Shown: piece after piece, positions 819 to 29,167 of the stretch | Layout of the letters: each line of letters opens with the position of its first letter | Position numbering within the stretch: the stretch's first letter is position 1 | Origin: Candidatus Nomurabacteria bacterium | Lineage (GTDB): Bacteria; Patescibacteriota; Minisyncoccia; Phycocordibacterales; UBA9973 | Assembly: GCA_963832025.1 (NCBI GenBank) | Contig: CAWHSF010000003.1 | Coordinates: 366,121-430,120 of the forward strand | Reading direction: 5' to 3' | DNA length: 64,000 bases | The notes under the pieces: generated by a model | What the model was told of the DNA's origin: nothing | The model's database searches: none | What the model saw: only the letters and a program-made list of their open reading frames with translations | Made by a program: the position numbers and the translations under genes

Positions 819-1630
819 TGACTGAAGAAAATAAAAAAAATATATCAGCAGTGGCGGGAACAATACATCCGCTTTCTTTATTAGCAGAAGAAGCTTTGCA
901 AGTGTTTTCTGATATGGGTTTTGAAATTGCGACTGGTCCGGAATTGGAAAGTGAATGGTACAACTTTGATGTCTTAAATGTGCCAAAAGACCATCCAGCG
1001 CGTGATATGCAAGACACCTTTTGGATTAAAGATTCTCCGCAGGAGCAAGAGAATTCTGAAGGCGGAAGGTTCCGCCCGAAGGGTGGAGTAATGCCGAAGA
1101 ATTTTCTTACTCCTGCAGGAGAAAATAGATTCGTCCTTCGTACTCACACCACAAGTGTCACTGCGCGGGCGATTGAGCAGGCGGGCAAAGAAGGCAGAAT
1201 GCCTTGTGCTTTTATTTCCATTGGAAAAGTCTTCCGAAATGAAGCCACGGATGCCACGCACGAAATGCAATTTTATCAGATAGATGGCGCGATGGTGGGA
1301 GTTGATATTTCTGTGGCGGACATGAAAGGTGTACTGACTCAATTTTATAAAAAAATGTTAGGCGAAGATGTGGTCATTGAATTTAGACCTAGTTTTTTTC
1401 CATTTACTGAGCCGTCGCTCGAAGTCTTTGCAAAATTTAAAGGTAAATGGCTTGAGATGGGTGGCTCAGGAATGTTGCATCCGAATGTTTTACGCAATAT
1501 TGGATTGGATCCTAAAAAAGTACAGGGATTCGCTTTTGGTCACGGGCTAGACCGCATTGCGATGATTAAATGGGGCATATCCGACGTGCGCTTCTTTTAT
1601 CAGGGAGATTTGAGACTTAATCAGTTTTAA
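818..1630 (+). CDS. pheS: Phenylalanine--tRNA ligase alpha subunit, short form lacking the N-terminal coiled coil, with an in-frame repeat insertion
   Basis: Class II motifs HPARDMQDTFWI, LRTHTTSV, GKVFRNEATDATHEMQFYQIDG and FPFTEPSLEV...GSGMLHPNVL. Extra segment QEQENSEGGRFRPKGGVMPKNF between DTFWI and LRTHT. Confidence 0.95.
   Translation: MTEENKKNISAVAGTIHPLSLLAEEALQVFSDMGFEIATGPELESEWYNFDVLNVPKDHPARDMQDTFWIKDSPQEQENSEGGRFRPKGGVMPKNFLTPAGENRFVLRTHTTSVTARAIEQAGKEGRMPCAFISIGKVFRNEATDATHEMQFYQIDGAMVGVDISVADMKGVLTQFYKKMLGEDVVIEFRPSFFPFTEPSLEVFAKFKGKWLEMGGSGMLHPNVLRNIGLDPKKVQGFAFGHGLDRIAMIKWGISDVRFFYQGDLRLNQF
1034..1122. repeat. ~89-bp hairpin element inside pheS (family A)
   Basis: Imperfect terminal inverted repeats tctccgcaggagcaagagaattc / gaagaattttcttactcctgcaggaga. 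The core is ~90 percent identical to the reverse complement of 3118-3171. Confidence 0.85.
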
Positions 1631-1633
1631 TTT

Positions 1634-3470: not shown

Positions 3471-3562
3471 ATTTTTTGTCAGTTATCCCCAATATTTTGC
3501 TGAGTTTTCCTTTTCGGGAAAGGCTTATTTTGGTATAATATATAAAACAAACATAGAAAAAT

Positions 3563-4882
3563 ATGAAGCAAAAAAATAATTTTAAGATTTTCGTAAAAAA
3601 ATCACTAGTTTCTATTTTTTTTGTTCTCTTTTTTATTTTTACTTCCCATGTTTTTGCGACAACCGACCTCACAGCATTATCGCAACCCAATATTGCTAAT
3701 ACTCTAAAAACACAAAGCGAAGAAACATTACTAAATGCATTAAATAATGCGGATGTAATTTCTAAACTCACTGTTCCCACAACAACAACTATTCCTAAAA
3801 ATAATATTGTTCACCCCCTTTTTCAATTTAAGAACACCAATTTTTCTTTACTAGGGGGCAGTATTATTTCTATTTATAATAATTTTGTCCTACAGCCAAC
3901 TTCGGATGTGGAAACAGCAACACTTTTAATGATAGGGGATGGTCTAATCAGTATGGGCAATGTTACCGATTCTATTTACAGTAATTATGTTTCGTTCCCC
4001 AAATTGGCTTTTTCAACTCCAAAAATTAGTTTACTAAAAATAAATCCACCAAACGAAAACATGTTAGCAGCTGTGGTTGGCGCTGATGTAAATTATTATG
4101 TCACTGATTACAACGATTTTATCCTAAGACCTGTTTCTGGCTTGGAGACATCTATCTTACTTAAAATAGGGGAAGGATTAATCAATACCGGACACGCAAC
4201 GAGTTTTGTTTATAATAATGTTAAAAGCATAGATTCTAATTTTTACAACAACTATACTTCCGAACTCGCTGATATTTTATTTGCTCCCAAGATGGTGACA
4301 AAGACAACAGCTACTCCTACACCCGCAGTTGCTTCTGCTCAGAATACAAACACTTTAAATACCGCACCTACTGAGGCAGTTCAAACAGCTGGTATCATTA
4401 AAAATTGTGGAACAAGTATTGCTCCAAAATTTGGCAGTCCGGCTACTTATGAAAATAATTCCACACTGACTTGCTTGGCGCAAGCGGCGCTCACTTGTCA
4501 AAACGCGGAAGGTACTTTGACGAATAATTTTTTCCCGACTATCTTTGAAATCAGTAATACACAAAATTCCTGCGACTTTAAATTGTCTTATTCTACGGAC
4601 AGCACCCTTTCCGATATTACCGGCAAAAAACTAGCCGGAGAGTCTGTGTCATGTCCAGTTAGCATCGTGAAGGAGATAGACAACACTAACCCCACTTCTG
4701 TAAAATTTATTGAAGCCGATACTACAGACTTAAGTAAATATGGCAGTGATATATATTTTTATGGAACACTCGGTTTATTTGTAGAAAACGCCCTGGATCA
4801 AAATAAAATCCAATCTCTTGGTTGTAGCGGAGATTATATAAATACGATTATTTCCAGCTACAAAGTTGCTAAAATTCAATGA
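3563..4882 (+). CDS. Secreted protein with an internal duplication and a Cys-containing C-terminal domain
   Basis: Signal-peptide-like N-terminus (KKSLVSIFFVLFFIFTSHVFA). Duplicated ~90-aa module (ILQPTSDVETATLLMIGDGLISMGNVTDS versus ILRPVSGLETSILLKIGEGLINTGHATS). Eight Cys in the last 170 aa. Sits directly upstream of the giant surface gene. Confidence 0.6.
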   Translation: MKQKNNFKIFVKKSLVSIFFVLFFIFTSHVFATTDLTALSQPNIANTLKTQSEETLLNALNNADVISKLTVPTTTTIPKNNIVHPLFQFKNTNFSLLGGSIISIYNNFVLQPTSDVETATLLMIGDGLISMGNVTDSIYSNYVSFPKLAFSTPKISLLKINPPNENMLAAVVGADVNYYVTDYNDFILRPVSGLETSILLKIGEGLINTGHATSFVYNNVKSIDSNFYNNYTSELADILFAPKMVTKTTATPTPAVASAQNTNTLNTAPTEAVQTAGIIKNCGTSIAPKFGSPATYENNSTLTCLAQAALTCQNAEGTLTNNFFPTIFEISNTQNSCDFKLSYSTDSTLSDITGKKLAGESVSCPVSIVKEIDNTNPTSVKFIEADTTDLSKYGSDIYFYGTLGLFVENALDQNKIQSLGCSGDYINTIISSYKVAKIQ

Positions 4883-5017: not shown

Positions 5018-8000
5018 ATGAATTCTCGCTTATATCTTGGCGATGATAACAAGAAATACATCTCAACTAAAGAGGCTAGTTCTTTGACGGGTTACTCCAG
5101 AGATTATATAGGCCAACTTGTCCGAAGTAATAAGATAGATTCCCAAAAAATTGGCCGTACATGGTATGTCTCGGAGGAAGCAATTTTGAACTATAAAATA
5201 TTCTCAAATCAATTAGGGTTGGTTCCAGATGTGGCGCCAGAAAAGATCCAAAGTGAAAATTTTATTCAAAATCCGGTCGTGATTCCAGTTCCGAGTGTAA
5301 AACTTCCTGCTCCTTCCGTGTCGGGCGAAAAATTAAAAAAGAACCTAAAAAGAAAAAAAATACTTTTATCAACTTTTAGTTTTCTCCTGATAGCCGGGAT
5401 AGTCTCTGCGAGTGGTATCAATTTTAAAGAAGTCTTTAAAAATACTTTCTCCACGCCCAAAAGTTTTTTATCTGCTAGTTCAATCCAATCATTCCCCAAC
5501 AACAAAACACCGACCATAAACATTTCTGACTTGGCGACTTCATATGAAAATTATCTTACTCCACAAGTAGCAACCTCAAGTAAACCTTCTGCTCCTTCGG
5601 TTGAAAAAATTATTGAAATTGAAAAAAGTCCGGTTACGCAAACTGCTGTTCTTTCCATTTTGCAGAACTTGCTCAGCGAACCGGCAATCCAAAATGAACT
5701 TCGTGGTCCGACTGGACCAACCGGCCCAGCCGGAACTTCGGGAAGCTATGCCACCTACACCAGTTATGTGGCTCCGAATCCGGCAATCAATTATGTCGGC
5801 GCCACTTTTTCTTCCGCTTCCAATTTATCTTCCAACCTCTTGAACACCGGCACAGCCAACATAAATAATTTAGCTGTCTCCGCCGGCGCGATAATCGGAA
5901 GTTTGAATGTGACAGGAGATTCTTCTTTTGGCGGACAAGTTGTCGCCTCAACTGTTGTTGATTCCGGTTTAGTAAACCAAACTTGCATCGGCACCGATGC
6001 ATCAGGCGCATTTGAAGCCGGCACTTGTGGCAGTGGTAGTGGCAGTCAGTGGACAACTAGCGGGTCAGATATTTATTACAACACCGGCAACGTCGGCATC
6101 GGCACAACTTCACCGGCAGCAACGCTCGATGTCACCGGCACAGGTAATTTTTCCGGCGCACTGACCGCGGGAACAATTAACGGCATCACTTTCTCCGGTT
6201 CTTCCACGCCGACGCTCAGTGTCTCCGGAACGGCTTCCGTCTCTGGCGCCAACACCGGAGACAATGCAACCAACACACAATATGCAAATGACTATCGAGC
6301 AGCAAATTTTGTCGCCGGCACAGATTACCAAGCCCCCGTCACTCTCACTACCACCGGCAGTAGCGGAGCTTCCACTTTTTCTAGTAACACTTTAAATATT
6401 CCAAACTACACTCTCGCAGGTCTCGGAGGAATTTCTAATATCTCCGGTCAAGATTTAAGCACAGCCAACAATGCAACATCAAAATTTATAACTTTAGGTT
6501 CGCTTTCTGCCGGAACCGGAATTTCTTACGATAATACGACTGGGATAATTACAAATTCTGCTCCAGACCAAACCGTTGCTTTTTCCGGTGGAACAAATGT
6601 AACGATTGGTGGAACTTATCCAAACTTTACAATTACCGACAACTCCATAACTACGGGAGGAGCCAGAAGCGCAATTTCACTGACAACCACCGGAAGTTCC
6701 GGAGCCTCTACTTATAATTCGGGAACGGGTGTTTTAAATATTCCTCAATATCAAGCAGGATTGAGTTTAATTAAGGGAACTTATGTTGATGGGGATGTTT
6801 GTACTTATGCTTCTACCGGCACTCTTTTAAATTGTAATACCGCGGCATATCAAATAGCTTCTTCCGCTCTTTCTTCCATCGCCGGTCTTGCTTGGTCTTC
6901 CGGAACACCTTTCGTTAAAATGACAGCCTCCGGAACCTTTGCGCTAGATACAAATACATATGCGACCGGAAGTGGAACAGCCAGTGGCACCAACACCGGC
7001 GACCAAACACTTACCATCGGGGGCACAACTTCTCCAACTATCGCCTTATCGGGAAGCAATACAGCAACATTCTCCGCAGGAACAGGAATTACTTTAGGGC
7101 AATCGGCTGGAACGATAACAATTACAAATTCTGCACCTTTCACTGGGGGACTTCTTGCTACCGGTGCAACTACCGGTGCAACAAGCCAAGCTCAAGCGTT
7201 TACCAATGGCATAATCTCTCCGACCATTCTGGGCGGTTCAGGAACAACGCAAACACTTAACTTCCAAACTACTTCAGGGGTGGGTGCAACGGGAGCCGAT
7301 ATGCATTTCAATGTCGGCAACAACGGAGCGACGAATGCCATGACGATTTTGAATAGCGGCAACGTCGGCATCGGGACGACGAGTCCGGCACAGAAGTTAA
7401 CTGTCACTGGTGGAAATATACAAATGACTGATGCTGGGGCGAAATTGTATTTAACAGATGGCTCACATTATGTTTCTTACGACGGCACAAATACGCAAAT
7501 ATTTTCTAGTGTTGGTGGCGTCAATTTAGCAGTTAATACGGCATCTCCTATTTCATTTATAACTAATTCAGCGTACCAAATGAGGTTAAGTGCTACTGGA
7601 GGATTGTCACTTGGTTCAACCTATTATTCTACGGACGCTGGGGCAGGGAATATGATAATACAAGGCAAGGTCGGCATCGGGACGACGACGCCTGCTTATG
7701 GTTTAGATGTAGCAAAAGGGACTGGGGCAACGGCACAATTTTTTGACCAAACCGCGACCACGGGTAGCACGCTTGTTACTATTCAAGCAGGTGCGGCACA
7801 AAACGCTGGAGCTTATACAAATGTTTTGAATTTTGCTGGCAATAATGGAACGACCAGAGGGTATATAGCTGTAGACGGATTGAACGGAGTATCAAAACTA
7901 AATATTACTGATGTTGTCGCTTCAAATGGTAATTGGGAGTTAAAAGATTCGGGCTCGTTAAATATGTATGCTGGCAATTCAATCTACTTGCAAAATGCTC

Positions 8001-11000
8001 ACTCCAACTCTAATATACAATTGTATAACACTGGGGCAACGGGGGTATCGAGTCTAGCAATAATGAACGGCAACGTCGGCATCGGGACCACGGGGCCGAG
8101 TGATTTGTTGCAACTTGGCACTGGAAATTTAAGTTGGTCATCTGATGGTGGCGGTGATATTGGGGCGAGTGGAGGAAATAGACCAGGGAATATTTATGCT
8201 AAGATTCAAGTCAGGGCTGGTGCTGGTTATCTAAATGGTAATACGGTTGGAGGGAGTAGCAATTTTGCTTTGTCTGGTGGTGGTAGTGCTACTTTGACAA
8301 TTGGCGGAACAAGCAACACCATTGTTTTCAAAACTACCGCCTCTAATTCAGAGGTAATGAGGATAGAACCAATAAACGGCAACGTCGGCATCGGGACGAC
8401 GACACCGACGGCTTACTTAAACATCAAAGCAGGAACAGCCACAGCTAACACCGAACCTCTACAACTTACCGCTGGAGTATTAAACACCTCCGCCGTCTCC
8501 GGAGCATTAGAAACAGATGCAAGTAACAATTTATATTACACACCGGGTACAGGAACGAGAGGAATTATTCCTTTGGGCACAGCGGCAAATACTTTGCTCT
8601 TTACTACTACTGGTGCGACGAATGTGACTTTACCAACAAGTGGAACGCTGGCAACACTTGGTTCTCCAACTTTCACTGGCACTGTCACCACACCGGCTTT
8701 AACCATTTCCGGTATCACCGGCAGTACCCAATGCTTACAAGTCAACAGCAGTGGTGTGGTCAGTGGCACATCTGCAGCTTGTGGCGGAGGTGGTGGTTCA
8801 ACTGCTTGGAGCAGTATCACCAACCCAAGCGGAAATCTTTCTTTGGCAATGGCTGGTGACACCAGTACTTTCACTTACGGAGCGACAACCGGTTCAGCAA
8901 ACTTGTTCAACTTAACCGACACCTCTTCCAATACCGGCACTGGAGTTTTGTTGAATGTCTCAACTGCCAGTGGTTCTACTTTAAATCCTTTCTCCGTGAC
9001 TACCGCCGGTGCAACAAATCCGAGCTTGTATGTCGGTTCTAATGGTAACGTTTCAATTGGAACCTCAATTACAAATACTGCAGTTCTGCAAGTACAAGCA
9101 CCGGTTCCGGAGAGTAGTCTTTTTGCTTTTGCGAACCATGATTTTTCTCTGGGTAGCGTAGGAACTGCCATGACGATTGATACCGGAGCTACCTCCGGAG
9201 ATACCTATGTGGATATGCAAGCTTACAACGCTGGTGGAGTTAATGGCGGTCCTTTAGTTTTTAATGCTGCTGGTGGTAATGTCGGGATTGATACAAACGA
9301 CCCAACTACCGCTCTCACCGTTAATGGGAGTATGTCCAATCTCCTTAATCCCAGTTCAGCTTTTTTAAATGTTGTAGGTTCGACATCAATTACTTCTGCT
9401 TCCGTGGTCTACGTCTCCGGTAACTATGCCTATGTGGCAGATTATACCGGTAATGAACTTGATATTGTTGACATTACCAATCCGAATGCTCCCTATGTGG
9501 CTGGCACATTAAGCGGAATTAATCATATCTCTTCCATCTACGTTTCCGGTCGTTATGCCTATGTGACGGACAAAAGTATTGGTGACATGACTATCATTGA
9601 TGTTTCCAATCCGATTTCACCGACTGTGGTCGGTACATTAACCGGACTTAATACTCCTACCTCCATCTACGTTTCTGGTCGTTATGCCTATGTAGCGGAT
9701 AGCGGTAGTGGTGATATGTATGTGATTGATGTTTCCACTCCGAGATTACCGATTGTGGTTGCCACCTTAACCGGGCTGAGTAGTCCTTCCTCCATCTATG
9801 TTTCCGGTCATTATGCCTATGTAGCAGATAGTGGTAGTGGTCACATGTCTATCATCGATATTTCCGATCCGGTTTCACCGAATGTGATAGGTACAGCAAC
9901 CGGACTTGGTAGTCCCTCCTCTGTCTATGTCTCCGGTCGTTATGCCTATGTGACGGATACGGGTAGTGGTAACTTGTATTCCATTGACCTTTCCAACCAA
10001 GCTTCTCCGAGTGTGGTTGGTACGCTACCAGGATTTATTACTCCAACTGATGTCTATGTTTCTGGTAATTTTGCATATGTAACAGACAGTGACGGTGAAC
10101 TCGACGTCGTTGATATTTCCGACCCGACTACTCCGATTTATGATACATATGCAGGACTTACTGCTCCCGACTCGGTCTATGTCTCCGGTCAGTATGCCTA
10201 TGTCGCGGATAGTGGTGGCGGCGATATGGCTGTCATTGACCTAACCGGAACACAAACAACTTCCTTGACCGCCGGGAGTGCGAACATCGGCAACTTGCAG
10301 ATTGCTAATGATTCTTTGGTTGGTGGTCAACTGCAAGTAAATGGTGCCCTGACAGCCAACGGTGGAAACTTTAACAGTGGAGTTGCAGTAAATGGAAATA
10401 TTTCCAATACCATTTCATCTTCTTCTCCTCCGACTGTCGTTGCTACTGCCACCGGGCTGACTAATATCTTAACTGACTATGTCTCCGGTAACTATGCGTA
10501 TGTAGGAACTGGTACCGGTGGTACTGGTCATATGTATATCGTTGATATTTCCAATCCGACTGCTCCGAGTGTTGTCGGTACATTATCAGGGGTTGGTAAG
10601 ATTAATTCTATCTATGTTTCCGGTCAGTATGCCTATGTGTTAGATGATAGTAATGGCTACATGGATGTCGTTGATATTTCCAATCCGCATGCCCCAAGTG
10701 TTGTCGGTACAGTGGTAGGGTTTACTGGTCCTGTATCTATCTATGTTTCCGGTCATTATGCCTATGTGACAGATGCCAATTCTCTGACTTTGTCTGTCAT
10801 CGATGTTTCCAACCCGACTGCTCCGAATCTCATCGGAAGTCCATTGTCGCTGACTGCTCCTCTCTTCATCTATGTTTCCGGTCATTATGCCTATGTGACG
10901 GAAAGTGGTGGGAGCATGGATATCATTGATGTTTCCAATCCGTATTCTCTGAGTATTGTCGGTACAGCCACAGGACTTGGTTCTCTTGATGGCAATGTCT

Positions 11001-12514
11001 ATGTCTCCGGTCGTTATGCGTATGTAACAAATACTGCTAGTAGTGGTGATATGTATGTCGTTGATGTTTCCAATCCAGTTTCTCCAAGTACTGTCGGTAC
11101 ATTAGGACTTTCTTGGCCTCTTGGTATCAATGTCTCCGGTCATTATGCCTATGTGACGAGTTATGCTGGTGGTGGCATGTATGTCCTTGATGTTTCCAAT
11201 CCGACTGCTCCAAGTGCTGTTGCTCTTACACTCGGACTGACTACTCCTTCTTTTATCAGGGTTTCCGGTCGTTATGCCTATGTGGTGGAATCTACTGCTA
11301 GTTCCATGGCTGTCATTGACCTCACTGGTACCCAAACAACTTCTCTCACCTCCGGTAGTGCTAACATCGGTAACTTGCAAATTGCTAATGATGCTTTGAT
11401 TGGTGGTCAACTGCAGGTGAATGGTGGTTTGACGGCAAGTGGTGGAAACTTTTCGGGGGATGTGGCGACTGAGGGATCCTTAAACATTGCTGGATATGTA
11501 GGTATCGGGACGACGATGCCGGACAATCCTCTTACTGTTAACGGCGCAGCGGACAATACTACCGGTGTATGGTCTGTATTTTCTGATGAACGCTTGAAAA
11601 ATATTGACGGCAACTTTAATGATGGCTTGTCCACCCTGATGCAGTTTAATCCGGTTACGTTTACCTATAATGGACAAAATGGAATTTCGGACACTACTAC
11701 ACAGCAAATTGGTATCGTTGCTCAAGACGTGCAACAATTTGCTCCATATATGATAAATACAGTGGAAGGGACATTGAACGGACAGCCTACGAGTCTACTT
11801 CAATTCAACCCGCAAGCATTGCCATATATCACCATCAATGCAGTTAAGGAATTGAATCTAGATTTAGATGCGATTTCGGGATTGACGGTGCCGACTCCGA
11901 CTCCGGAATCTACCAGTTTTGCAACTGCGTTCTTTAAAAATATTGAAACTAAACTTATTGCTTGGTTTGCTGATGCTGGGAATGGAATAGGAGATTTGTT
12001 CGCTGGAACAATTCACGCTACAAATGAACTATGTATCAACACCACTTGCGTGACTCAAGCACAACTGCAAGCACTTTTGGCAAATTTAAATTCAAACGGA
12101 AACGCAGGAAACAATACGTCTGCCAATGCAGGCGAAAATAATTCAAATGTTCAAAATCCGCCTTCCAGTATTCCCGTAATCACTTTGATTGGTGATGCCA
12201 CCATTAATTTAAATGTCGGAGATACTTACACTGAACAAGGAGCAACTGCCACCGAAAATGATAATGCAGTCGCGGTTGTTATCAGCGGGACGGTAGACAC
12301 AACCACTGCCGGCACTTACACTGTTGATTATGATGCGACGGATTCTGCCGGGAACAAAGCGGTTGAAGTTACGAGAACAGTGATTGTTGCAAATGCGCCA
12401 GTTTCAACTTTTTCGTCGGACTCAGGATCTACGGCTACGCCTGCGACAACACCAGATTCAACAACAGCTAATTCCACAACCACTCCAGATTCTAGCACTT
12501 CAACTTCAAACTAA
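5018..12514 (+). CDS. Giant (2498 aa) membrane-anchored surface protein. Domain order: N-terminal excisionase-type HTH, one TM helix, short collagen-like GPT run, tail-fibre-like GNVGIGTTSP repeats, two 7-repeat LVIVD blocks, S74-type intramolecular chaperone domain, Ig-like domain, Thr/Ser-rich tail.
   Basis: Single uninterrupted ORF. HTH: YISTKEASSLTGYSRDYIGQLVRSNKIDSQKIGRTWYV. TM: LLSTFSFLLIAGIVSASGI. Collagen-like: GPTGPTGPAGTSG. Seven G(N/K)VGIG(T/D)T motifs. Fourteen YVSGxYAYVxD...(V/I)(V/I)D(V/I)SNP repeats. S74 domain: SDERLKNI...GIVAQDVQQFAPYMI. Ig-like: ITLIGDATINLNVGDTYTEQGATA...AGTYTVDYDATDSAGN. Confidence 0.85.
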   Translation: MNSRLYLGDDNKKYISTKEASSLTGYSRDYIGQLVRSNKIDSQKIGRTWYVSEEAILNYKIFSNQLGLVPDVAPEKIQSENFIQNPVVIPVPSVKLPAPSVSGEKLKKNLKRKKILLSTFSFLLIAGIVSASGINFKEVFKNTFSTPKSFLSASSIQSFPNNKTPTINISDLATSYENYLTPQVATSSKPSAPSVEKIIEIEKSPVTQTAVLSILQNLLSEPAIQNELRGPTGPTGPAGTSGSYATYTSYVAPNPAINYVGATFSSASNLSSNLLNTGTANINNLAVSAGAIIGSLNVTGDSSFGGQVVASTVVDSGLVNQTCIGTDASGAFEAGTCGSGSGSQWTTSGSDIYYNTGNVGIGTTSPAATLDVTGTGNFSGALTAGTINGITFSGSSTPTLSVSGTASVSGANTGDNATNTQYANDYRAANFVAGTDYQAPVTLTTTGSSGASTFSSNTLNIPNYTLAGLGGISNISGQDLSTANNATSKFITLGSLSAGTGISYDNTTGIITNSAPDQTVAFSGGTNVTIGGTYPNFTITDNSITTGGARSAISLTTTGSSGASTYNSGTGVLNIPQYQAGLSLIKGTYVDGDVCTYASTGTLLNCNTAAYQIASSALSSIAGLAWSSGTPFVKMTASGTFALDTNTYATGSGTASGTNTGDQTLTIGGTTSPTIALSGSNTATFSAGTGITLGQSAGTITITNSAPFTGGLLATGATTGATSQAQAFTNGIISPTILGGSGTTQTLNFQTTSGVGATGADMHFNVGNNGATNAMTILNSGNVGIGTTSPAQKLTVTGGNIQMTDAGAKLYLTDGSHYVSYDGTNTQIFSSVGGVNLAVNTASPISFITNSAYQMRLSATGGLSLGSTYYSTDAGAGNMIIQGKVGIGTTTPAYGLDVAKGTGATAQFFDQTATTGSTLVTIQAGAAQNAGAYTNVLNFAGNNGTTRGYIAVDGLNGVSKLNITDVVASNGNWELKDSGSLNMYAGNSIYLQNAHSNSNIQLYNTGATGVSSLAIMNGNVGIGTTGPSDLLQLGTGNLSWSSDGGGDIGASGGNRPGNIYAKIQVRAGAGYLNGNTVGGSSNFALSGGGSATLTIGGTSNTIVFKTTASNSEVMRIEPINGNVGIGTTTPTAYLNIKAGTATANTEPLQLTAGVLNTSAVSGALETDASNNLYYTPGTGTRGIIPLGTAANTLLFTTTGATNVTLPTSGTLATLGSPTFTGTVTTPALTISGITGSTQCLQVNSSGVVSGTSAACGGGGGSTAWSSITNPSGNLSLAMAGDTSTFTYGATTGSANLFNLTDTSSNTGTGVLLNVSTASGSTLNPFSVTTAGATNPSLYVGSNGNVSIGTSITNTAVLQVQAPVPESSLFAFANHDFSLGSVGTAMTIDTGATSGDTYVDMQAYNAGGVNGGPLVFNAAGGNVGIDTNDPTTALTVNGSMSNLLNPSSAFLNVVGSTSITSASVVYVSGNYAYVADYTGNELDIVDITNPNAPYVAGTLSGINHISSIYVSGRYAYVTDKSIGDMTIIDVSNPISPTVVGTLTGLNTPTSIYVSGRYAYVADSGSGDMYVIDVSTPRLPIVVATLTGLSSPSSIYVSGHYAYVADSGSGHMSIIDISDPVSPNVIGTATGLGSPSSVYVSGRYAYVTDTGSGNLYSIDLSNQASPSVVGTLPGFITPTDVYVSGNFAYVTDSDGELDVVDISDPTTPIYDTYAGLTAPDSVYVSGQYAYVADSGGGDMAVIDLTGTQTTSLTAGSANIGNLQIANDSLVGGQLQVNGALTANGGNFNSGVAVNGNISNTISSSSPPTVVATATGLTNILTDYVSGNYAYVGTGTGGTGHMYIVDISNPTAPSVVGTLSGVGKINSIYVSGQYAYVLDDSNGYMDVVDISNPHAPSVVGTVVGFTGPVSIYVSGHYAYVTDANSLTLSVIDVSNPTAPNLIGSPLSLTAPLFIYVSGHYAYVTESGGSMDIIDVSNPYSLSIVGTATGLGSLDGNVYVSGRYAYVTNTASSGDMYVVDVSNPVSPSTVGTLGLSWPLGINVSGHYAYVTSYAGGGMYVLDVSNPTAPSAVALTLGLTTPSFIRVSGRYAYVVESTASSMAVIDLTGTQTTSLTSGSANIGNLQIANDALIGGQLQVNGGLTASGGNFSGDVATEGSLNIAGYVGIGTTMPDNPLTVNGAADNTTGVWSVFSDERLKNIDGNFNDGLSTLMQFNPVTFTYNGQNGISDTTTQQIGIVAQDVQQFAPYMINTVEGTLNGQPTSLLQFNPQALPYITINAVKELNLDLDAISGLTVPTPTPESTSFATAFFKNIETKLIAWFADAGNGIGDLFAGTIHATNELCINTTCVTQAQLQALLANLNSNGNAGNNTSANAGENNSNVQNPPSSIPVITLIGDATINLNVGDTYTEQGATATENDNAVAVVISGTVDTTTAGTYTVDYDATDSAGNKAVEVTRTVIVANAPVSTFSSDSGSTATPATTPDSTTANSTTTPDSSTSTSN

Positions 12515-12681: not shown

Positions 12682-14778
12682 ATGGCAAAAGAGAAAGAAG
12701 ACAAAAAAGGTGGCGACAAAAGCCACCATTATGATGCCTCCGACATCTCGGTTTTGGAGGGTCTGGAGCCGGTTCGACGCCGTCCGGGCATGTATATCGG
12801 TACGACGGGGCCGGAAGGCTTACATCATTTGATTTGGGAAATTTTTGACAACTCTCGTGATGAAGCGATGGGTGGTTTTTGTGACGATATTGAAATTGTG
12901 CTTTTGCCAAACAACCGCATACGCGTCGCCGACAACGGCCGAGGCATGCCGGTAGACATTCATAAAAAAACCAAAGTCTCCGCGTTGGAGACAGTCATGA
13001 CGACACTGCACGCCGGAGGAAAATTCGGCGGTGACCATAGTGGCTACAAAGTTTCCGGAGGTTTGCACGGTGTCGGCGCTTCGGTAGTGAATGCGCTTTC
13101 TATTTTTTGCGAAGCGAGAGTTTGTCGAGACGGTGGTGAATACCGACAAGAATATTCGGAGGGCAAAAGAAAATCCGCGGTTAAAAAAATAGCGTCTTCA
13201 AAATTGCATGGCACGATTATCACTTTTGAACCGGATAAAAAAATTTTTGGTGATATTAAATTTGATTGGAATACCATTGTCGCTCATATTCGCCAACAAG
13301 CTTATTTGGTGAAAAAACTGAAAATTTTAATTATTGATGCGCGTGAATGGGACAATAATAAAGGTATGAATGAATCCGACGTTTTTTATTTTCGGGACTT
13401 GAGGCTGGAACTTCCGTCGGTCTCTTTTTATTTTGAAGGCGGATTGGTTTCTCTCGTAAAATATTTGAACAAATTTCAAAAGCCCGTCCAAAGCAATATT
13501 TTTTATGTTGAAAAAGAATTGGATGGTGTCGGTGTGGAGATAGCTCTGCAATATGTAGATGATATTTCCGAACGCATCATTCCTTTTGCAAACAATATCA
13601 ATACTCCCGAAGGTGGCACCCATGTGACTGGTTTTAAAACAGCACTCACTAGAACTTTGAATACTTACTGCAAGAAAAATGAAATGATGAAAGAGTCCGA
13701 AGGCGGATTTACCGGCGAAGACGTCTTGGAAGGTTTGACGGCGGTCATTTCTGTAAAATTGCGCGAGATACAATTTGAAGGTCAGACTAAAGCAAAACTC
13801 GGTAGTATGGAGGCGCAAGGCGCGGTGGCGACAGTTTTCGGCGAAGCCTTCGCAAATTTCTTGGAAGAAAATCCGGACGAAGCAAAAATAATCATCAACA
13901 AATCCATTCTTGCCTTAAAAGCCCGCAAAGCCGCCAAAGCCGCCAAAGATTCCATCCTCCGCAAGGGTGCTTTGGAAGGGATGACTCTTCCGGGGAAACT
14001 CGCAGACTGCCAGAGCAAGAATGCATCCGAATCCGAACTATTCATCGTGGAGGGAGATTCCGCAGGTGGTAGTGCCAAACAAGGACGCGACCGTCGCACT
14101 CAAGCTATTTTGCCACTTGCGTGGAAAAATTTTGAATGTTGAACGCGCGCGCATTGACAAAATGCTCGCTTCCAAAGAAGTGAAATCGCTTGTCATTGCC
14201 ATGGGTACATCCATAGGAGATACCTTTGATATAGACAAAATGCGTTACCATAAAATAATCATCGCGACCGATGCCGACGTGGACGGTTCCCACATCAGCA
14301 CATTGCTTTTGACTCTTTTCTATCGATATTTTCGCCAAGTGATTGACGCGGGATATATTTACATCGCGCAGCCTCCACTATATAAAATAAAAAAAGGCAA
14401 AGAAATTTTTTATGCTTACACTGATGAAGAAAAAGTAAAAATTATCGGCAAAAATGCGGATGTGAGTGACATTGAGGAGGTGGAAGATGAAGAACCCCTA
14501 CCCGACCTCCCCCTTGTTAAGGGGGAGGAGAAGAGGAGGAGGGTCTAGAGAAAAAATCCACTAAAATTCACATTCAGCGATATAAAGGTCTCGGAGAAAT
14601 GAATCCAGAAGAACTTTGGGAGACGACCATGGATCCTGCACATCGCGTGCTCAAGCAAGTGATGATTAATGACGCCGAAGAAGCCAACAAAATTTTTGAT
14701 ATTCTCATGGGCTCCGAAGTTCCTCCGCGTAAATCTTTCATTCAATCCAATGCGAAACTAGCGGAGATTGATATCTAA
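12682..14778 (+). CDS. gyrB: DNA gyrase subunit B. The reading requires two frame changes.
   Basis: Motifs [70 protein letters not shown] and [19 protein letters not shown]. The frame changes near 14117 (extra base between CTT and CGT) and returns in the G5 run at 14521-14525, inside a palindromic insert. Confidence 0.9.
14506..14528. repeat. Family B palindrome inside gyrB
   Basis: cctccccctt-gtt-aagggggagg. The 10-bp stems are identical to the smc copy. Confidence 0.85.
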
Positions 14779-17609: not shown

Positions 17610-18521
17610 ATGGCAAATAGGCACCTTTCTAGATCAATAGTTCTTCAGACACTTTTTGAGTTGGATTTTTCCGGTGACAAAAAGCCCGACACTGACGAGG
17701 CATTAAAAAGAAATTTAAAAGAATTTGCTCCTGGGCACGAAGATGATGCTTTTGTTTTTTCTCTTTTAGGTCAAGTTATAAAAAAACAAGTGGTGATTGA
17801 TGAAATCATAGAAAAAGCGGCGCCAGATTGGCCGATTAATAAAATATCTGTGATTGATAGAAATATTTTACGCATTGGGTTGACTGAGCTTCTCTTTGGT
17901 GACCGCAAAGAAGTGCCCCCCAAAGTAGCGATAAACGAAGCGATAGAATTGGCGAAAACTTTCGGTGGCGAAAATTCCGGCAAGTTCGTAAATGGTGTGC
18001 TTGGCGCGGTTTATAAAGAAATCGGCGAACCGGGGAAAGAACAAATAAGTAAAAAAAAGAAAATGGAAGAGCCTGTCGATATAAAGCAACTGCCGGTGGA
18101 AACTCTGGGTGGCGCTTTGGTATATGGGAGAAAAGATGATAAACCGGATGGTGAAATTTTATTTGCCTTGGTCCATGATGTTTTTGGTTATTGGACTTTG
18201 TCCAAGGGCAAAGTGGAAGCAGGAGAAGACGTGAAGGCCGGTACGGTAAAAATTATCAAAAAAGAAATCGGCTTGGATGTCACGATTGAAGAAAGACTCG
18301 GAAACAATGAATACGTCGCCACTCATCCGCAAACCGGAAAAAGTCTTAAAAAAGTGGTTTACTTTTTAGCCCAGAGTGATTACAAAGAACTTGAATTGGA
18401 AAAATCCGGTGGGTTGGATGGCGCTCGCTGGTTTTCACTTTCCGCCATTCACGAATTGCGTATTTACAATGATATTATTCCGCTGATTAGCAAAGCAGTA
18501 GATATTATCACTAAAAAATAA
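17610..18521 (+). CDS. nusB: NusB antitermination factor fused to a C-terminal Nudix-fold domain with a degenerate Nudix box
   Basis: NusB part: RSIVLQTLFELDF...IDRNILRIGLTELLF...PPKVAINEAIELAKTFGGENSGKFVNGVLG. Nudix-like part: GKVEAGEDVKAGTVKIIKKEIGL. The Gx5Ex7 spacing is kept, but REUxEE reads KIIKKE. Confidence 0.8.
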   Translation: MANRHLSRSIVLQTLFELDFSGDKKPDTDEALKRNLKEFAPGHEDDAFVFSLLGQVIKKQVVIDEIIEKAAPDWPINKISVIDRNILRIGLTELLFGDRKEVPPKVAINEAIELAKTFGGENSGKFVNGVLGAVYKEIGEPGKEQISKKKKMEEPVDIKQLPVETLGGALVYGRKDDKPDGEILFALVHDVFGYWTLSKGKVEAGEDVKAGTVKIIKKEIGLDVTIEERLGNNEYVATHPQTGKSLKKVVYFLAQSDYKELELEKSGGLDGARWFSLSAIHELRIYNDIIPLISKAVDIITKK

Positions 18522-18527
18522 ATATTT

Positions 18528-19223
18528 ATGATACAATTTTCCGATTTTGAAAAAAAAATAAAAGTAGTTTTTAAAAATAAAAATTTATTAAAACAAGCCT
18601 TTACGCACCGTTCTTTTATTAATGAAAATCCGGCTACATCTTTGTCACACAATGAACGCCTGGAATTTTTAGGCGATGCAGTTTTGGAACTTATCGTCAC
18701 TGATTTTCTTTACAAAAAATATCCACAATATGCGGAAGGAGAATTGACCGCTCTTCGTTCGGCGCTCGTGAACGCGATTATTATTTCTGAAATTGCTTCG
18801 CAAATCGGAATGAATGATTATCTGCTTTTGTCTAAAGGTGAGGCTAAGGATTTTGGGAAGGCCAGAATGTATATTTTGGCGAATACTTACGAAGCATTGG
18901 TTGGAGCTATGTATATAGACGCTGGCTATGAAGTCACGAATAAATTTATCACCAAAACTCTTTTGCCGAAGACTGAAGAAATTGTGAACAAAAAACTTTG
19001 GCGCGATGCGAAATCTCTAGTGCAAGAAAAAGCGCAGGAATTTGTTTCCGTTACTCCGGCTTATAAAGTGTTACTGCAATCAGGGCCCGACCACGATAAG
19101 CATTTTACGGTCGGTATTTTCTTTGGGGGAGATTTGGTTGCTGAAGGCAAAGGCAAATCAAAACAAGAAGCTGAACAATCAGCCGCTCTATGCGCATTAA
19201 AAAACAAAAACTGGTTAGATTAA
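18528..19223 (+). CDS. rnc: Ribonuclease III
   Basis: Signature NERLEFLGDAVLELIV, plus ANTYEALVGAMYID and a C-terminal dsRBD (GPDHDKHFTV...GKGKSKQEAEQSAA). Confidence 0.9.
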   Translation: MIQFSDFEKKIKVVFKNKNLLKQAFTHRSFINENPATSLSHNERLEFLGDAVLELIVTDFLYKKYPQYAEGELTALRSALVNAIIISEIASQIGMNDYLLLSKGEAKDFGKARMYILANTYEALVGAMYIDAGYEVTNKFITKTLLPKTEEIVNKKLWRDAKSLVQEKAQEFVSVTPAYKVLLQSGPDHDKHFTVGIFFGGDLVAEGKGKSKQEAEQSAALCALKNKNWLD

Positions 19224-19245: not shown

Positions 19246-21417
19246 ATGCGTCTCAAGACCCTTCAATTAAATGGTTTTAAATCATTTGCCCAAAAGACAG
19301 TTTTAGAATTCGAAAGCCCTATTGTTTCCATCGTCGGGCCCAATGGATCCGGAAAATCCAATATTGTGGAAGCTTTTCGTTTTGTCTTAGGTGAACAATC
19401 CATGAAATCCATGCGCGGAAAGGGTGGTTCAGACCTTGTGTTTAAGGGTTCAAAAAAACTGTCAGCCGGTTCTAAAGCTTCTGTCTCTATTTATTTTAAT
19501 AACACCGATAAGGTGTTTAAATTATCCAACGACGGAGGAGATGAAATAAATCTAAATTACGACACCATTTCTATTTCTCGCGAAGTTTACTCCGACGGAC
19601 TTAACAAATATATTTTAAATGGTTCGGAGGTTAGACTGAAAGATATTCACAATTTGCTTGCCTCGGTGAACATCGGTTCTTCCGGACACCATATCATCTC
19701 TCAAGGCGAGGCAGACAGAATTTTAAATGCAAACACGAAAGACAGGCGTGAGATGGTTGAGGATGCGCTTGGATTGAAAATCTATCAATATAAAATTAAA
19801 GAATCAGAAAGAAAACTGGAAAAGACAAATGAGAACATGAAAGAAGTTGTTCTTCAGCGTCGAGAAAATGTTCCGCATTTGAATTTTTTGAAAAAACAGG
19901 TAGAGAAATTTGAAAAGACGAAAGAAATGCAATCGGAGCTAGCAGTTCTCTATAAAGAATATTTAAAAAAGGAAAGTGTTTACTTAGAACAAGAAAAAGA
20001 AGCGCTCGGAGCAGAGAGAAAAAAAATTTCAACTGAGTTAAAGAGCGTGGATGAGAAAATTTCTATTATTGAGGACAATGACCCCCTCCGTCATTCTGAC
20101 ACCTCCCCCTTATTAAGGGGGAGGATTGGTGGGAGTTCTTCTTTAGAAGAACTCAGACTGCTCGAGCAGAAAATAAATTCTTTACGAGCAAGTAGAGGAG
20201 AACTTGAACGTAAACTCGGACGCATTGAAGGAATCTTGGAATCTAGAGCAAATAAAGTTCAAATTTCTGGTAGGTGTCCGCTTTGTGGTAGTGAAATTAA
20301 AGAAAATGCCGAGCAGATAGAAAAAAAACATAATGAAGAAAAAGAACTTGAAGAATTAAAAGTCTCACAAGCAAATGCGTTATCGGAAATAAAAAAGATT
20401 GAAGCGGAAGAAAAAGAGGGAATCAGTTCGGCGGAAAAATTGAAACAGGACATAAACAAGGAGATGGAAGCTTTGCGTGATTTGGAACGCGAGAAATTTG
20501 CTTTCAAAGTGCGTCACCAGGAGCTAACGTCTGCCTTAGAACTCGTAGTTATTAAGGAAGGGAATTTACATAGTCGCACAGAGGCTTTTGAACAAGAAAT
20601 AAAAGAAGGCGCAGTCTTGATCGGACAAGAAATTTATTCTTATAAAACTTATGAAGTCACAGAAGATGTTTTGGGTCATATTCAAGAAGAGCAGAGAAAA
20701 AAAATTGAACGTATCAAGATAAAATTGGAAGATACCGGTTTGGGGAATGGAGCCGAGCTTATGAAAGAATTTCAAGAAGTCTCCGAACGAGATCAGTTTT
20801 TGGCAAAAGAGATGGAAGATTTGGAGAAAAGCATCGAATCATTGAAAAAATTGATTGCAGACTTGAAAGAAAAAATTGACATAGAATTTAAAGAAGGCGT
20901 GAAAAAAATAAATGTGGAGTTCCAGGAATTTTTCTCGCTGATGTTTGGCGGAGGGCACGGTTCTCTTTCTATTATTGAAATTAAAAAGAGAAAAGTGAAT
21001 GAAGTGGATGAGGATGGGGAGGAGATAACTGAGATGGAAGATGAAGAAGACGAAATGCCGGAAAAAGGAATAGAAATAAATGTTTCTTTGCCGCATAAAA
21101 AAGTGAAAGAACTGAATGCTTTTTCGGGCGGAGAACGCTCGCTCACATCTATCGCGCTTCTGTTCGCCATGTCGCAAGTGAATCCGCCACCGTTTCTGGT
21201 GCTGGATGAGACAGATGCCGCGCTCGATGAATCAAATTCCCGTAAATACGGCGATATGCTTGAAAAACTTTCCGAACATTCTCAGCTTGTCGTTGTTACC
21301 CACAATCGCGAGACGATGTCTCGCGCCGGGATACTTTACGGCATCACTATCGGTTCCGACGAAGCTTCCAAACTTCTTTCTGTAAAATTCGAAGAAGCCA
21401 CGCAGATTGCAAAATAG
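19246..21417 (+). CDS. smc: SMC-family ATPase, short (723 aa) and hingeless, with a central CPLC motif
   Basis: N-terminal head: GFKSFAQKTVLEFESPIVSIVGPNGSGKSNIVEAFRFVLGEQS. C-terminal head: FSGGERSLTSIALLFAM...FLVLDETDAALD...VVTHNRETM. About 375 aa of Lys/Glu-rich coiled-coil-like sequence with GRCPLCGSE at aa 342-350 and no hinge-like Gly-rich domain. Confidence 0.8.
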   Translation: MRLKTLQLNGFKSFAQKTVLEFESPIVSIVGPNGSGKSNIVEAFRFVLGEQSMKSMRGKGGSDLVFKGSKKLSAGSKASVSIYFNNTDKVFKLSNDGGDEINLNYDTISISREVYSDGLNKYILNGSEVRLKDIHNLLASVNIGSSGHHIISQGEADRILNANTKDRREMVEDALGLKIYQYKIKESERKLEKTNENMKEVVLQRRENVPHLNFLKKQVEKFEKTKEMQSELAVLYKEYLKKESVYLEQEKEALGAERKKISTELKSVDEKISIIEDNDPLRHSDTSPLLRGRIGGSSSLEELRLLEQKINSLRASRGELERKLGRIEGILESRANKVQISGRCPLCGSEIKENAEQIEKKHNEEKELEELKVSQANALSEIKKIEAEEKEGISSAEKLKQDINKEMEALRDLEREKFAFKVRHQELTSALELVVIKEGNLHSRTEAFEQEIKEGAVLIGQEIYSYKTYEVTEDVLGHIQEEQRKKIERIKIKLEDTGLGNGAELMKEFQEVSERDQFLAKEMEDLEKSIESLKKLIADLKEKIDIEFKEGVKKINVEFQEFFSLMFGGGHGSLSIIEIKKRKVNEVDEDGEEITEMEDEEDEMPEKGIEINVSLPHKKVKELNAFSGGERSLTSIALLFAMSQVNPPPFLVLDETDAALDESNSRKYGDMLEKLSEHSQLVVVTHNRETMSRAGILYGITIGSDEASKLLSVKFEEATQIAK
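20102..20124. repeat. Family B palindrome inside smc
   Basis: cctccccctt-att-aagggggagg, with GC-rich flanks. Translated as [11 protein letters not shown]. Confidence 0.85.
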
Positions 21418-26115: not shown

Positions 26116-27075
26116 TTGAAACGGTATTTCACACTGGTAGTACTCGCCCTGGCAATGGCTTTGGCGACTGGCGTGCCAGCAATGGCACAAGCAGTGGTGG
26201 ATCACTTCAAAACCCCCGGGGAATGCTTGACGGCGAGGGTGCCTTACACGCCGTCTATTACGAGGCCAAAGCCACTGGTTGATGGGGAATCATTGATCCC
26301 CAACAGAAACGGCGGTTGCGCTGACATGACTCTTCCTGATCGTCTCGGCGGTCGTGGTTGGGTCTTCGTAACAGGCGACATTATCGACGGCAAAAAGGGT
26401 ATGCGCTACCAACCATGCGGGAATACAGTGTTTGCGTTCATTCCTGTGGAGCCGACACCGACACCGACGCCCAGTACTCAACAGGCCGACAACGACGAGG
26501 ACAATGCTCCGCCTCAACGGCAACCACAGATTATTTTGGTGCAGTCACCTCCTGTTAATGTGACTGCGATAAGCGGTGGTAGCGGCGGGAATTATACTCC
26601 TGCTGCGTACGACGGCCAAGAAGGGAATTACTCCTGCAATCCGGCAGGGCTCCTTGCAAGTTGCGACAGCTATGGTAGTTGTCGCACTATGTATCCCGTT
26701 CAGCAATGTGGTTCGGGACAAGGTGGCTACGGCTACAACGATGGCAACGGCTACGGCGGGGGCGGTGTGATGATCAACGGGGTGTTGGTCATCGGCGGCA
26801 ACGGCTATGGTGGCGGTTATGGCGGTGGCTACGGCGGTCGTGGCGGCTATGGCGGTCGTGGCGGTGGCTACGGCGGAGGTCGTGGTTATCGTGGCGGCGG
26901 CGGTTATCGTGGCGGCGGCGGTTATCGTGGCGGCAATGGCGGCGGCAACCCACGTCCGAAGGGGGGGCCAGTACGGCCAGTTGGTGGCGGCGGCGGTGGA
27001 AGGTCAGGCGGCGGATCGCTTCCGCCCTCTAACGGAAGCCGCTCCTTCAGTCGCGGAGGAGGTGGACGCCGGTAA
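26116..27075 (+). CDS. Secreted Cys-containing protein with a Gly/Tyr/Arg-rich (GGYGGRGG / GYRGGG) C-terminal tail. Encoded on a GC-rich compositional island. TTG start.
   Basis: RBS gaggaggt lies 6 nt before the TTG. Signal peptide: MKRYFTLVVLALAMALATGVPAMAQA. The reading frame is kept over 960 nt of sequence far more GC-rich than its neighbours. Consensus promoter directly upstream. Confidence 0.7.
   Translation: MKRYFTLVVLALAMALATGVPAMAQAVVDHFKTPGECLTARVPYTPSITRPKPLVDGESLIPNRNGGCADMTLPDRLGGRGWVFVTGDIIDGKKGMRYQPCGNTVFAFIPVEPTPTPTPSTQQADNDEDNAPPQRQPQIILVQSPPVNVTAISGGSGGNYTPAAYDGQEGNYSCNPAGLLASCDSYGSCRTMYPVQQCGSGQGGYGYNDGNGYGGGGVMINGVLVIGGNGYGGGYGGGYGGRGGYGGRGGGYGGGRGYRGGGGYRGGGGYRGGNGGGNPRPKGGPVRPVGGGGGGRSGGGSLPPSNGSRSFSRGGGGRR
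26884..26937 (+). repeat. Perfect 18-bp tandem repeat (GGTTATCGTGGCGGCGGC) x3, encoding GYRGGG
   Basis: Read directly at 26884-26901 and 26902-26919. The third unit ends in aat. Confidence 0.85.
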
Positions 27076-28322: not shown

Positions 28323-28412
28323 TTTTCCTCACAAAACACGGCCAACGCTTCCTTGCAAAGAAGCGTTGGCCACCTCTATTTTATGGGGATTTTTTGTGCT
28401 ATAAATACCAAC

Positions 28413-29167
28413 ATGCGCTTTCACGTCATTACAATTTTTCCAGAAATTTTCGACTCATATTTAAATGAGTCTATAATTGGGCGGGCGATTAGAGATAAAA
28501 AAATTTCTGTAAAATTTTACAATCCACGAGATTTTATTAAAGCACCTAAAAATAATTACCGGCCGGTAGATGACAAGCCGTACGGTGGCGGTCCGGGTAT
28601 GGTGATGCGGGCCGAGCCGATACTGAAAGCAGTAGAATCTGTATTAAAAAAAATAAAAAATAAAAAAGTTTTAATTATCAATTTTATTCCCAGTGCGGAA
28701 AAATTTACGACCGCTGCCGCGAAAAAATTTCCAAAAAATATACGGAAATTATTTTAATCTGCGGAAGATACGAAGGGATTGATGCCAGAATCGATAAAAT
28801 TTTAAAAACAAAAAAATTTTCAATCGGCGACTATGTTCTGACGGGCGGGGAATTGCCGGCCTTGGTTTTAATTGATTCTGTCTCTCGCCAAGTTCCCGGA
28901 GTTTTGGGCAAATATGAATCTTTGGAAGAAGAAAGAATTTCTAGTAGCGAGGTTTACACTCGTCCAGAAATCTTGAGATATAAACCTTCTAAGGCTATAA
29001 AAAATTTATATAAAAGTTACAAAGCATGTCCCGTAGGAAGTACTCTTTCCTTCGGGGTTCCAAAAATTCTACTTTCAGGGAATCACAAACAGATAGAAGA
29101 ATGGAAGAAATCCCAGGCCTTAGAAAAGTTTATATATATATCATGCTATGCAAAGAGAAATTTTTAA
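28413..29167 (+). CDS. trmD: tRNA (guanine37-N1)-methyltransferase, with a frame break in an A6 run
   Basis: Motifs MRFHVITIFPEIF, VDDKPYGGGPGMVM, ICGRYEGIDARI, SIGDYVLTGGELPALVLIDSV and LLSGNHKQIEEW. The two pieces join at the A6 run 28733-28738. Confidence 0.85.

Follow-up and report, generated by a model that had tools for sequence, protein, structure and literature searches.

Structural maintenance of chromosomes (SMC) family members are defined in reviews by their hinge, and Rad50 by its zinc hook (PMC10586767). Zinc hooks were previously known in Rad50/SbcC and in many LmuB proteins. LmuB is ∼650 aa long, has ∼20 nm coiled coils, in many members with a CPxCG motif, and usually carries an E-to-Q change in Walker B (PMC10586767). 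The ASRP proteins (ClsN/coalescin, Sph1/Sph2), of ∼590 aa, have a coiled coil with a zinc-hook motif in place of the hinge (PMC9389158). The same replacement has been engineered: Bacillus subtilis Smc with the Pyrococcus furiosus Rad50 zinc hook substituted for its hinge, termed Smc(Zh), supports normal growth, and its authors consider the dimerization domain's fold irrelevant for chromosome segregation (Buermann et al., 2017; PMC5344682). Hook and hinge have also been reported to be interchangeable (PMC6969161). Here we describe an open reading frame (ORF) of 723 aa in a 64,000-nt stretch of the Candidatus Nomurabacteria contig CAWHSF010000003.1 (the whole 64-kb stretch is hereafter the window). 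Its product, a mini-SMC, combines an Smc-type head with an apex loop containing the sequence Cys-Pro-Leu-Cys. The reading that we favor, with a probability of roughly 0.65, is that this is the Smc (condensin) ortholog of a bacterium of the Parcubacteria/Paceibacteria, within the Candidate Phyla Radiation (CPR), in a form which has lost the hinge and about half of each arm, and which dimerizes at its apex through a zinc hook.

The architecture of the protein was examined in an AlphaFold2 monomer model built from 131 family sequences (mean predicted local distance difference test score, pLDDT, 85.5), with helices assigned by DSSP (Table 1). Between the outgoing, N-terminal arm and the returning, C-terminal arm, the model contains only an 18-residue loop (338–355) and no globular domain. 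The Pfam hinge family SMC_hinge (PF06470) has no match in the ORF even at E ≤ 1, and none of the 240 homologs has it in its precomputed Pfam list. The absence of a hinge, proposed in a first-pass annotation made from the letters of the sequence, is thus supported by both the profile search and the model. The CPLC motif of the loop lies ∼43% of the way along the helical stretch aa 178–567, so that the midway position given in that annotation is roughly right. C344 and C347 are the sole cysteines of the protein.

Each arm strand comprises ∼160–190 residues, corresponding to roughly 25 nm of coiled coil and about half of the B. subtilis arm (344 aa; PMC5344682). The head-proximal part of the returning arm superposes on 5XEI, an Smc head-plus-joint structure. 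Close to the apex, the G-R-x-E-G core of the pre-apex motif is kept in both hook-bearing and hookless members of the family: G325, R326, E328 and G329 do not vary within the clade of the window protein, and G325, E328 and G329 are conserved at ≥90% family-wide. The insertion at aa 278–296 of the outgoing arm varies, and while some close relatives have it, others (P0034 and P0091) do not; it may mark an elbow-like break facing the 469–476 break of the returning strand.

The apex itself resembles the Rad50 hook in sequence. A 99-aa apex fragment, compared with all PDB sequences, matched 1L8D best (E = 0.0061), the zinc hook of P. furiosus Rad50, in an alignment that pairs ISGRCPLCGSEIK with AKGKCPVCGRELT. 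A profile of 14 hook apexes placed 1L8D first (8.3e-4) and 6ZFF second (8.9e-3), and the Pfam family Rad50_zn_hook (PF04423) matched 7 of the 14 apex fragments, the highest number for any family and one that DUF7837 equaled, and gave the best E-value (1.5e-4). The first-pass assignment of a Rad50-style CPxC motif to the tip of the coiled coil is supported by its location in the apex loop and by the best PDB match. Across 115 sequences of 73–91% identity, C344, P345, C347 and G348 never change, although the flanks vary; judged from these alignments, the CPxCG motif is far beyond chance. Exactly two cysteines are present in 98 of the 114 relatives bearing CP[LTVM]C, and since these two are usually all that a chain possesses, four zinc ligands would need two chains.

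The head is of the Smc type and not of the Rad50 type. The two SMC-type halves, and the motifs quoted for them in the first-pass annotation, were all located in the ORF. Pfam SMC_N spans aa 3–706 (7.9e-54), and the top NCBIfam model is TIGR02168, SMC_prok_B (3.8e-144, 482 bits), which matches in two stretches, the best of them covering the N-terminal head and proximal arm (aa 2–275). The other NCBIfam scores are at most 64 bits for Rad50 models, 54 for ASRP and 49 for RecN. The profile searches that had been recommended as a check therefore returned SMC_N, no SMC_hinge and a Rad50_zn_hook score below the gathering score. In PDB sequence searches the N-terminal half of the head matched the B. 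subtilis Smc head (5xg3_A, 2.5e-73), against ∼5e-11 for Rad50, and the C-terminal half an Smc C-head (5h66_B, 9.4e-34). Foldseek, run with the AlphaFold2 model, ranked first 5XEI (2.4e-31), a prokaryotic Smc head together with its coiled coil and joint; 5XG3 and 3ZGX were also among the best matches, and Rad50 appeared at rank 29 at the earliest. G31–K37, R57, Q153, S627–E630, D654–D657 and H686 are invariant in the 131-sequence family alignment, and, to judge from these residues, the head looks catalytically competent.

A position 3′ of rnc is supportive of, though not defining for, a bacterial Smc. The mini-SMC gene follows rnc directly in 22 of 22 related Paceibacteria loci, so that the rnc-smc arrangement pointed out at the start extends well beyond the window. 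The wider neighborhood is also kept (pheST, gyrB, thrS, nusB-NUDIX, RNase R and rpoB), with an HD_3 gene as the 3′ neighbor in the window and Maf in the relative L001. The locus is a housekeeping one, neither a defense island nor an sbcCD operon. Pfam scans of ∼40 ORFs of the window, a motif search and tblastn found no other SMC-like gene, as had been stated earlier, and no SbcD/Mre11 or ScpA/ScpB gene. The first-pass annotation had itself allowed that the gene might cluster with SbcC beside an sbcD; its neighbors are instead rnc and the HD-domain gene. Exact-protein look-ups, made to extend the window, led from PheS to a 3.6-kb Logan contig, whereas the terminal ORF and the SMC itself had no entry there; public collections do hold the identical SMC protein, on a contig of 430,556 bp. 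In one relative (L003, PMIU01000039.1, 10001–11068) the SMC frame ends at residue 355, just past the hook, through a frameshift or assembly error, or else because the allele is a shortened one.

These results bear on whether the protein is a condensin at all, or rather a Rad50/SbcC-like repair ATPase, an LmuB-type ATPase of Lamassu or another defense ATPase. Its architecture fits LmuB (∼650 aa, ∼20 nm coiled coils and a CPxCG hook; PMC10586767), and the PADLOC models mad3 and LmuB give 195 and 108 bits, respectively; these scores are nevertheless far exceeded by the 482 bits of SMC_prok_B, as is the 64 of Rad50. In Walker B the protein retains a glutamate (E655) at the position where LmuB generally has glutamine. 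The gene is flanked by rnc and an HD-domain or Maf gene, rather than by LmuA/LmuC or SbcD/Mre11, and it keeps one housekeeping position in all 22 genomes, unlike patchy defense islands. The best structural matches, moreover, are Smc heads with a joint. We regard a role in defense or repair as very improbable.

Four named families were considered as identities and rejected. For Rad50/SbcC, the scores were ≤64 bits against cut-offs of 700–1087, with SbcC_Walker_B at 15 against 27, and there is no Mre11/SbcD neighbor; RecN was rejected on its score of 49 bits. ASRP (NF045487), for which the cut-off is 300 bits, reached 54, and the relatives of the mini-SMC are bacterial only. LmuB, at 108 bits against 482 for Smc, was set aside given the intact E655 and the housekeeping neighbors at all loci.

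Compared with the described systems, the mini-SMC shares with the Smc of Smc-ScpAB (B. subtilis type) all of the head motifs, the proximal coiled coil with its joint and the post-rnc position. Unlike B. subtilis Smc, it is hingeless, with arms of ∼160–190 rather than 344 aa and an 18-residue CPxCG apex. With the Rad50/SbcC hook (1L8D, 6ZFF) it has in common the pattern G-[KR]-C-P-x-C-G-x-E-[LI] at the tip of an antiparallel coiled coil and two cysteines per chain, but its heads are not of the Rad50 type and no Mre11/SbcD gene adjoins it. Smc(Zh) similarly joins an Smc head and arms to a zinc-hook module (predicted in our case); the mini-SMC differs in being natural, and in having arms much shorter than those of any functional construct in that study (PMC5344682). 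ASRP is also a short SMC-superfamily protein with a hook motif where the hinge would be, but it forms a family of its own, is restricted to archaea and is paralogous or additional to a canonical archaeal SMC, whereas the mini-SMC holds the bacterial smc locus. LmuB has comparably short coiled coils and, in many members, CPxCG; in contrast to the mini-SMC, with its housekeeping context and intact E655, it belongs to a defense operon with LmuA/LmuC.

All relatives of the mini-SMC come from bacteria of the Parcubacteria/Patescibacteria group. The 120 best homologs (73–91% identity, 706–777 aa) derive from metagenome-assembled genomes (MAGs) of Nomurabacteria, Pacebacteria or Paceibacterota, and 114 of them carry CP[LTVM]C. 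A wider search was run against cluster representatives at 50% identity, 1.84 billion in all, and the best 150 were examined. These are 42–72% identical to the window protein, and all are short Parcubacteria SMCs of 524–797 aa; 148 are full-length (663–797 aa), the shorter two being P0122, an N-terminally truncated 524-aa fragment aligned from query residue 191, and P0151, of 584 aa. The survey of short SMCs in CPR that had been suggested thus shows a widespread short hingeless family, with the hook in only a minority of it.

Members with and without the hook differ in the length of the apex segment, measured from the conserved LGRxEG motif to the returning strand. It spans 55–73 aa in every CxxC-bearing member and 77–121 aa in every member lacking CxxC, so that hookless members have ∼30–60 additional apex residues. 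In an AlphaFold2 model of hookless P0101 (pLDDT 86.9), helices 348–366 and 371–388 form a hairpin between the arm helices, which is not a hinge fold. The cysteine-free insert, at an apex equivalent to aa 335–372 of the window protein, is carried by P0101, P0055, P0121 and most of P0123–P0270. As modeled in P0101, it is an undescribed apex module that presumably takes the place of the hinge. Because most of the short family has hairpin rather than hinge apexes, hinge loss is a trait of the whole family (∼700–790 aa), older and wider than the hook, and the hook is one of two modules. The initial picture of a hook-for-hinge swap in this particular gene has to be given up, as the whole short Parcubacteria family is without a hinge. 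Conservation of the CxxC among orthologs, on which that picture also relied, holds within hook-bearing clades but does not extend to all orthologs.

The hook is therefore a minority solution, and hook and hairpin are mutually exclusive across the family. This exclusivity would fit two alternative modules with one job, and we read the presence of another apex module wherever CxxC is absent as support for a role of the apex in dimerization. A search with P0152 (Vogelbacteria) revealed a second, diverse hook group, Vogelbacteria-like, with an apex C-x-x-C-[GA]-Q in 41 of its 120 best relatives (43–64% identity), the hook-bearing relatives being 689–771 aa long and the hookless ones 732–782 aa. 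When the apex was masked, the nearest neighbor of a hook-bearing sequence was itself hook-bearing in 53 of 54 cases. The clade of the window protein is ≤57% identical to the other hook group and 72% identical to hookless P0121. A neighbor-joining tree with Fitch parsimony gave eight changes of hook state and a hookless root. Hook lineages were scattered in the first such tree, and with denser sampling they resolved into the window protein's clade, four further clades and one singleton. The trees are distance-based, with deep nodes lacking support values, and we accordingly limit our claim to at least two independent hook groups.

Two hookless members of the window protein's clade, P0101 and P0055, have heads 80–95% identical to that of the window protein. 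Their apexes are only 37–40% identical to it and resemble that of P0121 instead. The two are mosaics, which indicates that apex modules have been exchanged in nature. Outside the Parcubacteria, the sole scan match with substantial coverage was the SMC of a DPANN archaeon (L024, Nanoarchaeia MAG DATDXC010000032.1), which has a canonical length of 1160 aa and is 32% identical across its N-terminal head and arm; a small genome is thus not in itself enough to impose the short form. A match in an Anaeromicropila MAG (L025, 44% identity) is confined to Walker-A residues 1–43.

CPR genomes are strongly reduced, several genes of the window are split (gyrB, mreB, tgt and trmD, see below) and the relative L003 stops just past the hook, all of which could be expected if the gene were a decaying smc remnant in the reduced genome of a symbiont, one that has kept its heads and lost rings and canonical function. 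The family is, however, very large and under clear purifying selection. Head columns are ∼92–94% conserved in the clade, catalytic residues remain invariant at 42–66% identity, and length and architecture are tightly kept across hundreds of clusters. We regard decay, too, as very improbable.

In the mechanism that we propose for an intact Smc with a zinc-hook apex, the chain would double back to form an antiparallel coiled coil with itself, with the ABC ATPase head at one end and the G-R-C-P-L-C-G loop at the other. Two chains would each contribute two cysteines to one tetrahedrally coordinated zinc, as in Rad50/SbcC. As each chain has only two cysteines, and no third or fourth ligand is conserved in their vicinity, the Rad50 solution is the simplest reading. 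The zinc-bridged apex would form a constitutive dimer and do the job of the hinge, with ATP-driven engagement of the heads acting as a second, ATP-gated interface. A kleisin presumably bridges the heads, closing a small ring or rod that could hold, and move along, chromosomal DNA. Zinc binding, hook dimerization, the kleisin partners and DNA entrapment or loop extrusion are the steps that we infer. The normal growth of the Smc(Zh) chimera indicates that a hook-for-hinge design is feasible.

Several observations weigh against this proposal. By a positional test, an apex CxxC is present in only 6 of the 150 wider representatives and missing from 144 (the test overlooks the CPLC of the truncated fragment P0122), and if most of the family does without it, the zinc hook is dispensable for such SMCs. 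The apex loop has a pLDDT below 50 in the monomer model, as one would expect if the motif depended on a second chain and a metal ion. Against Rad50_zn_hook the window apex scores 13.7 bits, below the gathering score of 24.3, and the PDB E-values for the apex are only 1e-2 to 1e-3, with coiled-coil sequence included. The 482 bits of the ORF likewise fall short of the curated equivalog cut-off of TIGR02168 (567.35). Lastly, Pfam scans and six-frame motif searches found neither ScpA nor ScpB across the 64-kb window and 435 kb of related loci.

As to the kleisin, scpAB is normally unlinked to smc, and its local absence is therefore uninformative. tblastn of the window and 25 loci with ScpA from B. 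subtilis, Geobacillus stearothermophilus and Streptococcus pneumoniae also found none; the B. subtilis query was checked against PDB entries, and the other two were taken from the alignments of that check. A metagenome scan with an alignment of the ScpA N-domain recovered only close Firmicutes-like loci and no CPR ScpA.

The lack of any apex cysteine in most family members, the low confidence of the hook loop and the sub-threshold similarity to Rad50_zn_hook would also be expected of a true hingeless Smc in which CPxCG forms no intermolecular zinc bridge, with the chains joined through their arms or heads or by another apex contact. Smc arms are known to zip into rods (PMC4306524), and the CxxC could then be only a motif that makes a tight turn or a cap, a pair with a redox or disulfide role, or a site where another protein docks. 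Such roles do not readily account for a C-P-x-C-G that is invariant while adjacent positions vary, nor for the recurrence of C-x-x-C-G at the same apex in a second, ∼50%-diverged group. The ∼30–60 extra residues that hookless members always carry as a hairpin suggest that a dedicated apex module is needed. Two cysteines per chain without a conserved third or fourth ligand is the Rad50 arrangement, and the Rad50 hook is the best PDB match. We therefore consider a hingeless Smc with a non-bridging CxxC unlikely, and prefer the dimer held at its apex by zinc.

Table 1. Features of the mini-SMC gene and its upstream neighbor (nucleotide positions are those of the window)
Feature	Nucleotides	Strand	Residues	Basis or remark
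Hingeless mini-SMC, complete gene	19246..21417	+	723 aa plus stop	ATG start; ORF list, SMC_N, TIGR02168
ABC ATPase head, N-terminal half	19246..19755	+	1-170	Motifs; match to B. subtilis Smc head
Walker A, GPNGSGKS	19336-19359	+	31-38	Motif position
R57	19414-19416	+	57	Family alignment, invariant
Q-loop, Q153	19702-19704	+	153	Family alignment, invariant
Outgoing (N-terminal) arm helices	19777..20256	+	178-277, 297-337	DSSP on model, pLDDT mostly 80-94
Non-helical, low-confidence insertion in outgoing arm	20077..20133	+	278-296	Model; relatives compared
Pre-apex motif, LGRIEGILES	20215..20244	+	324-333	Conservation
Apex loop with putative zinc hook	20257..20310	+	338-355	Model; conservation; PDB match
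GRCPLCGSEIK	20269-20301	+	342-352	Within apex loop
C344-P-L-C347	20275-20286	+	344-347	Within apex loop
Returning (C-terminal) arm helices	20311..20946	+	356-468, 477-497, 502-567	Model; breaks at 469-476 and 498-501
ABC ATPase head, C-terminal half	20947..21414	+	568-723	Motifs; match to Smc C-head
Signature, FSGGE	21121-21135	+	626-630	Motif position
Walker B (LVLDE, aa 651-655) and D-loop, FLVLDETDAALD	21193-21228	+		Catalytic E655 intact
H-loop, THN	21298-21306	+	685-687	Motif position
rnc (RNase III), immediately 5′ of the SMC gene	18528..19223	+		Ribonucleas_3_3 1.1e-37 plus dsrm

Elsewhere in the window, gyrB is present as two overlapping ORFs (12682–14142 and 14021–14548, + strand), split by an apparent 1-nt insertion near nt 14117 (CTT G CGT GGA AAA ...) that falls exactly at the conserved QAILPL|RGKILNVE motif. 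L001 has instead a single 1125-aa GyrB with an intein (852–4229 of that locus). Other essential genes also look broken (50861–52852, 52788–53156, 54006–54857/54658–55344 and 28353–28757): the frame of a class II aminoacyl-tRNA synthetase runs on into MreB, taking in its first two thirds, with the remainder in another frame, tgt forms two overlapping ORFs and trmD is a 134-aa fragment. The state of gyrB, mreB, tgt and trmD suggests either assembly or sequencing indels or real pseudogenization.

A 2498-aa ORF (5018–12514, + strand) probably encodes a large protein of the cell surface or of adhesion: it has 12 LVIVD repeats (β-propeller), a Peptidase_S74 domain (endosialidase chaperone) and a bacterial surface Ig-like domain. 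A 319-aa ORF (26116–27075, + strand) combines a signal-like N terminus with a long Gly/Arg/Tyr-rich tail (GGYGGGRGGYGG...); it lies in a local GC peak (0.49 versus ∼0.38) and has no Pfam match. NusB is fused to a NUDIX hydrolase (17610–18521, + strand; 303 aa), and the same fusion occurs in L001 (8322–9275). At the low-GC end of the window, a serine-recombinase fragment (61063–61419, − strand; Recombinase plus zinc ribbon) adjoins a 411-aa ORF with no family match (62438–63673, − strand), and the two may be the remnant of a mobile element.

In the literature searched we found no report of a natural bacterial Smc that carries a zinc hook or lacks a hinge, CPR, Patescibacteria and Parcubacteria included, and none of ScpAB in these groups. 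The survey of natural SMC arm lengths was seeded with hinge alignments (PMC5344682), and hingeless SMCs would consequently have been left out. More generally, members of this family score below the TIGR02168 cut-off, bear the label “AAA family ATPase” and escape hinge-seeded surveys, which calls for caution in annotation.

By head sequence, fold and locus the window gene is an Smc, and by its apex a Rad50, which makes it a natural counterpart of the engineered Smc(Zh) chimera. The hingeless family of ∼700–790 aa offers structural and single-molecule studies an SMC motor that is minimal and tractable, and provides a natural test of the need for a hinge and full-length arms in loading and loop extrusion. 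A broader proposal, which we advance tentatively and at somewhat less than even odds, is that Paceibacteria/Parcubacteria run their sole condensin on a hingeless, half-length Smc whose apex has been swapped repeatedly between hook and helical hairpin. If this is true, these would be the smallest natural SMC motors, and the hinge would be dispensable for SMC function in living cells, as would the hinge-DNA and hinge-head contacts of some loop-extrusion models.

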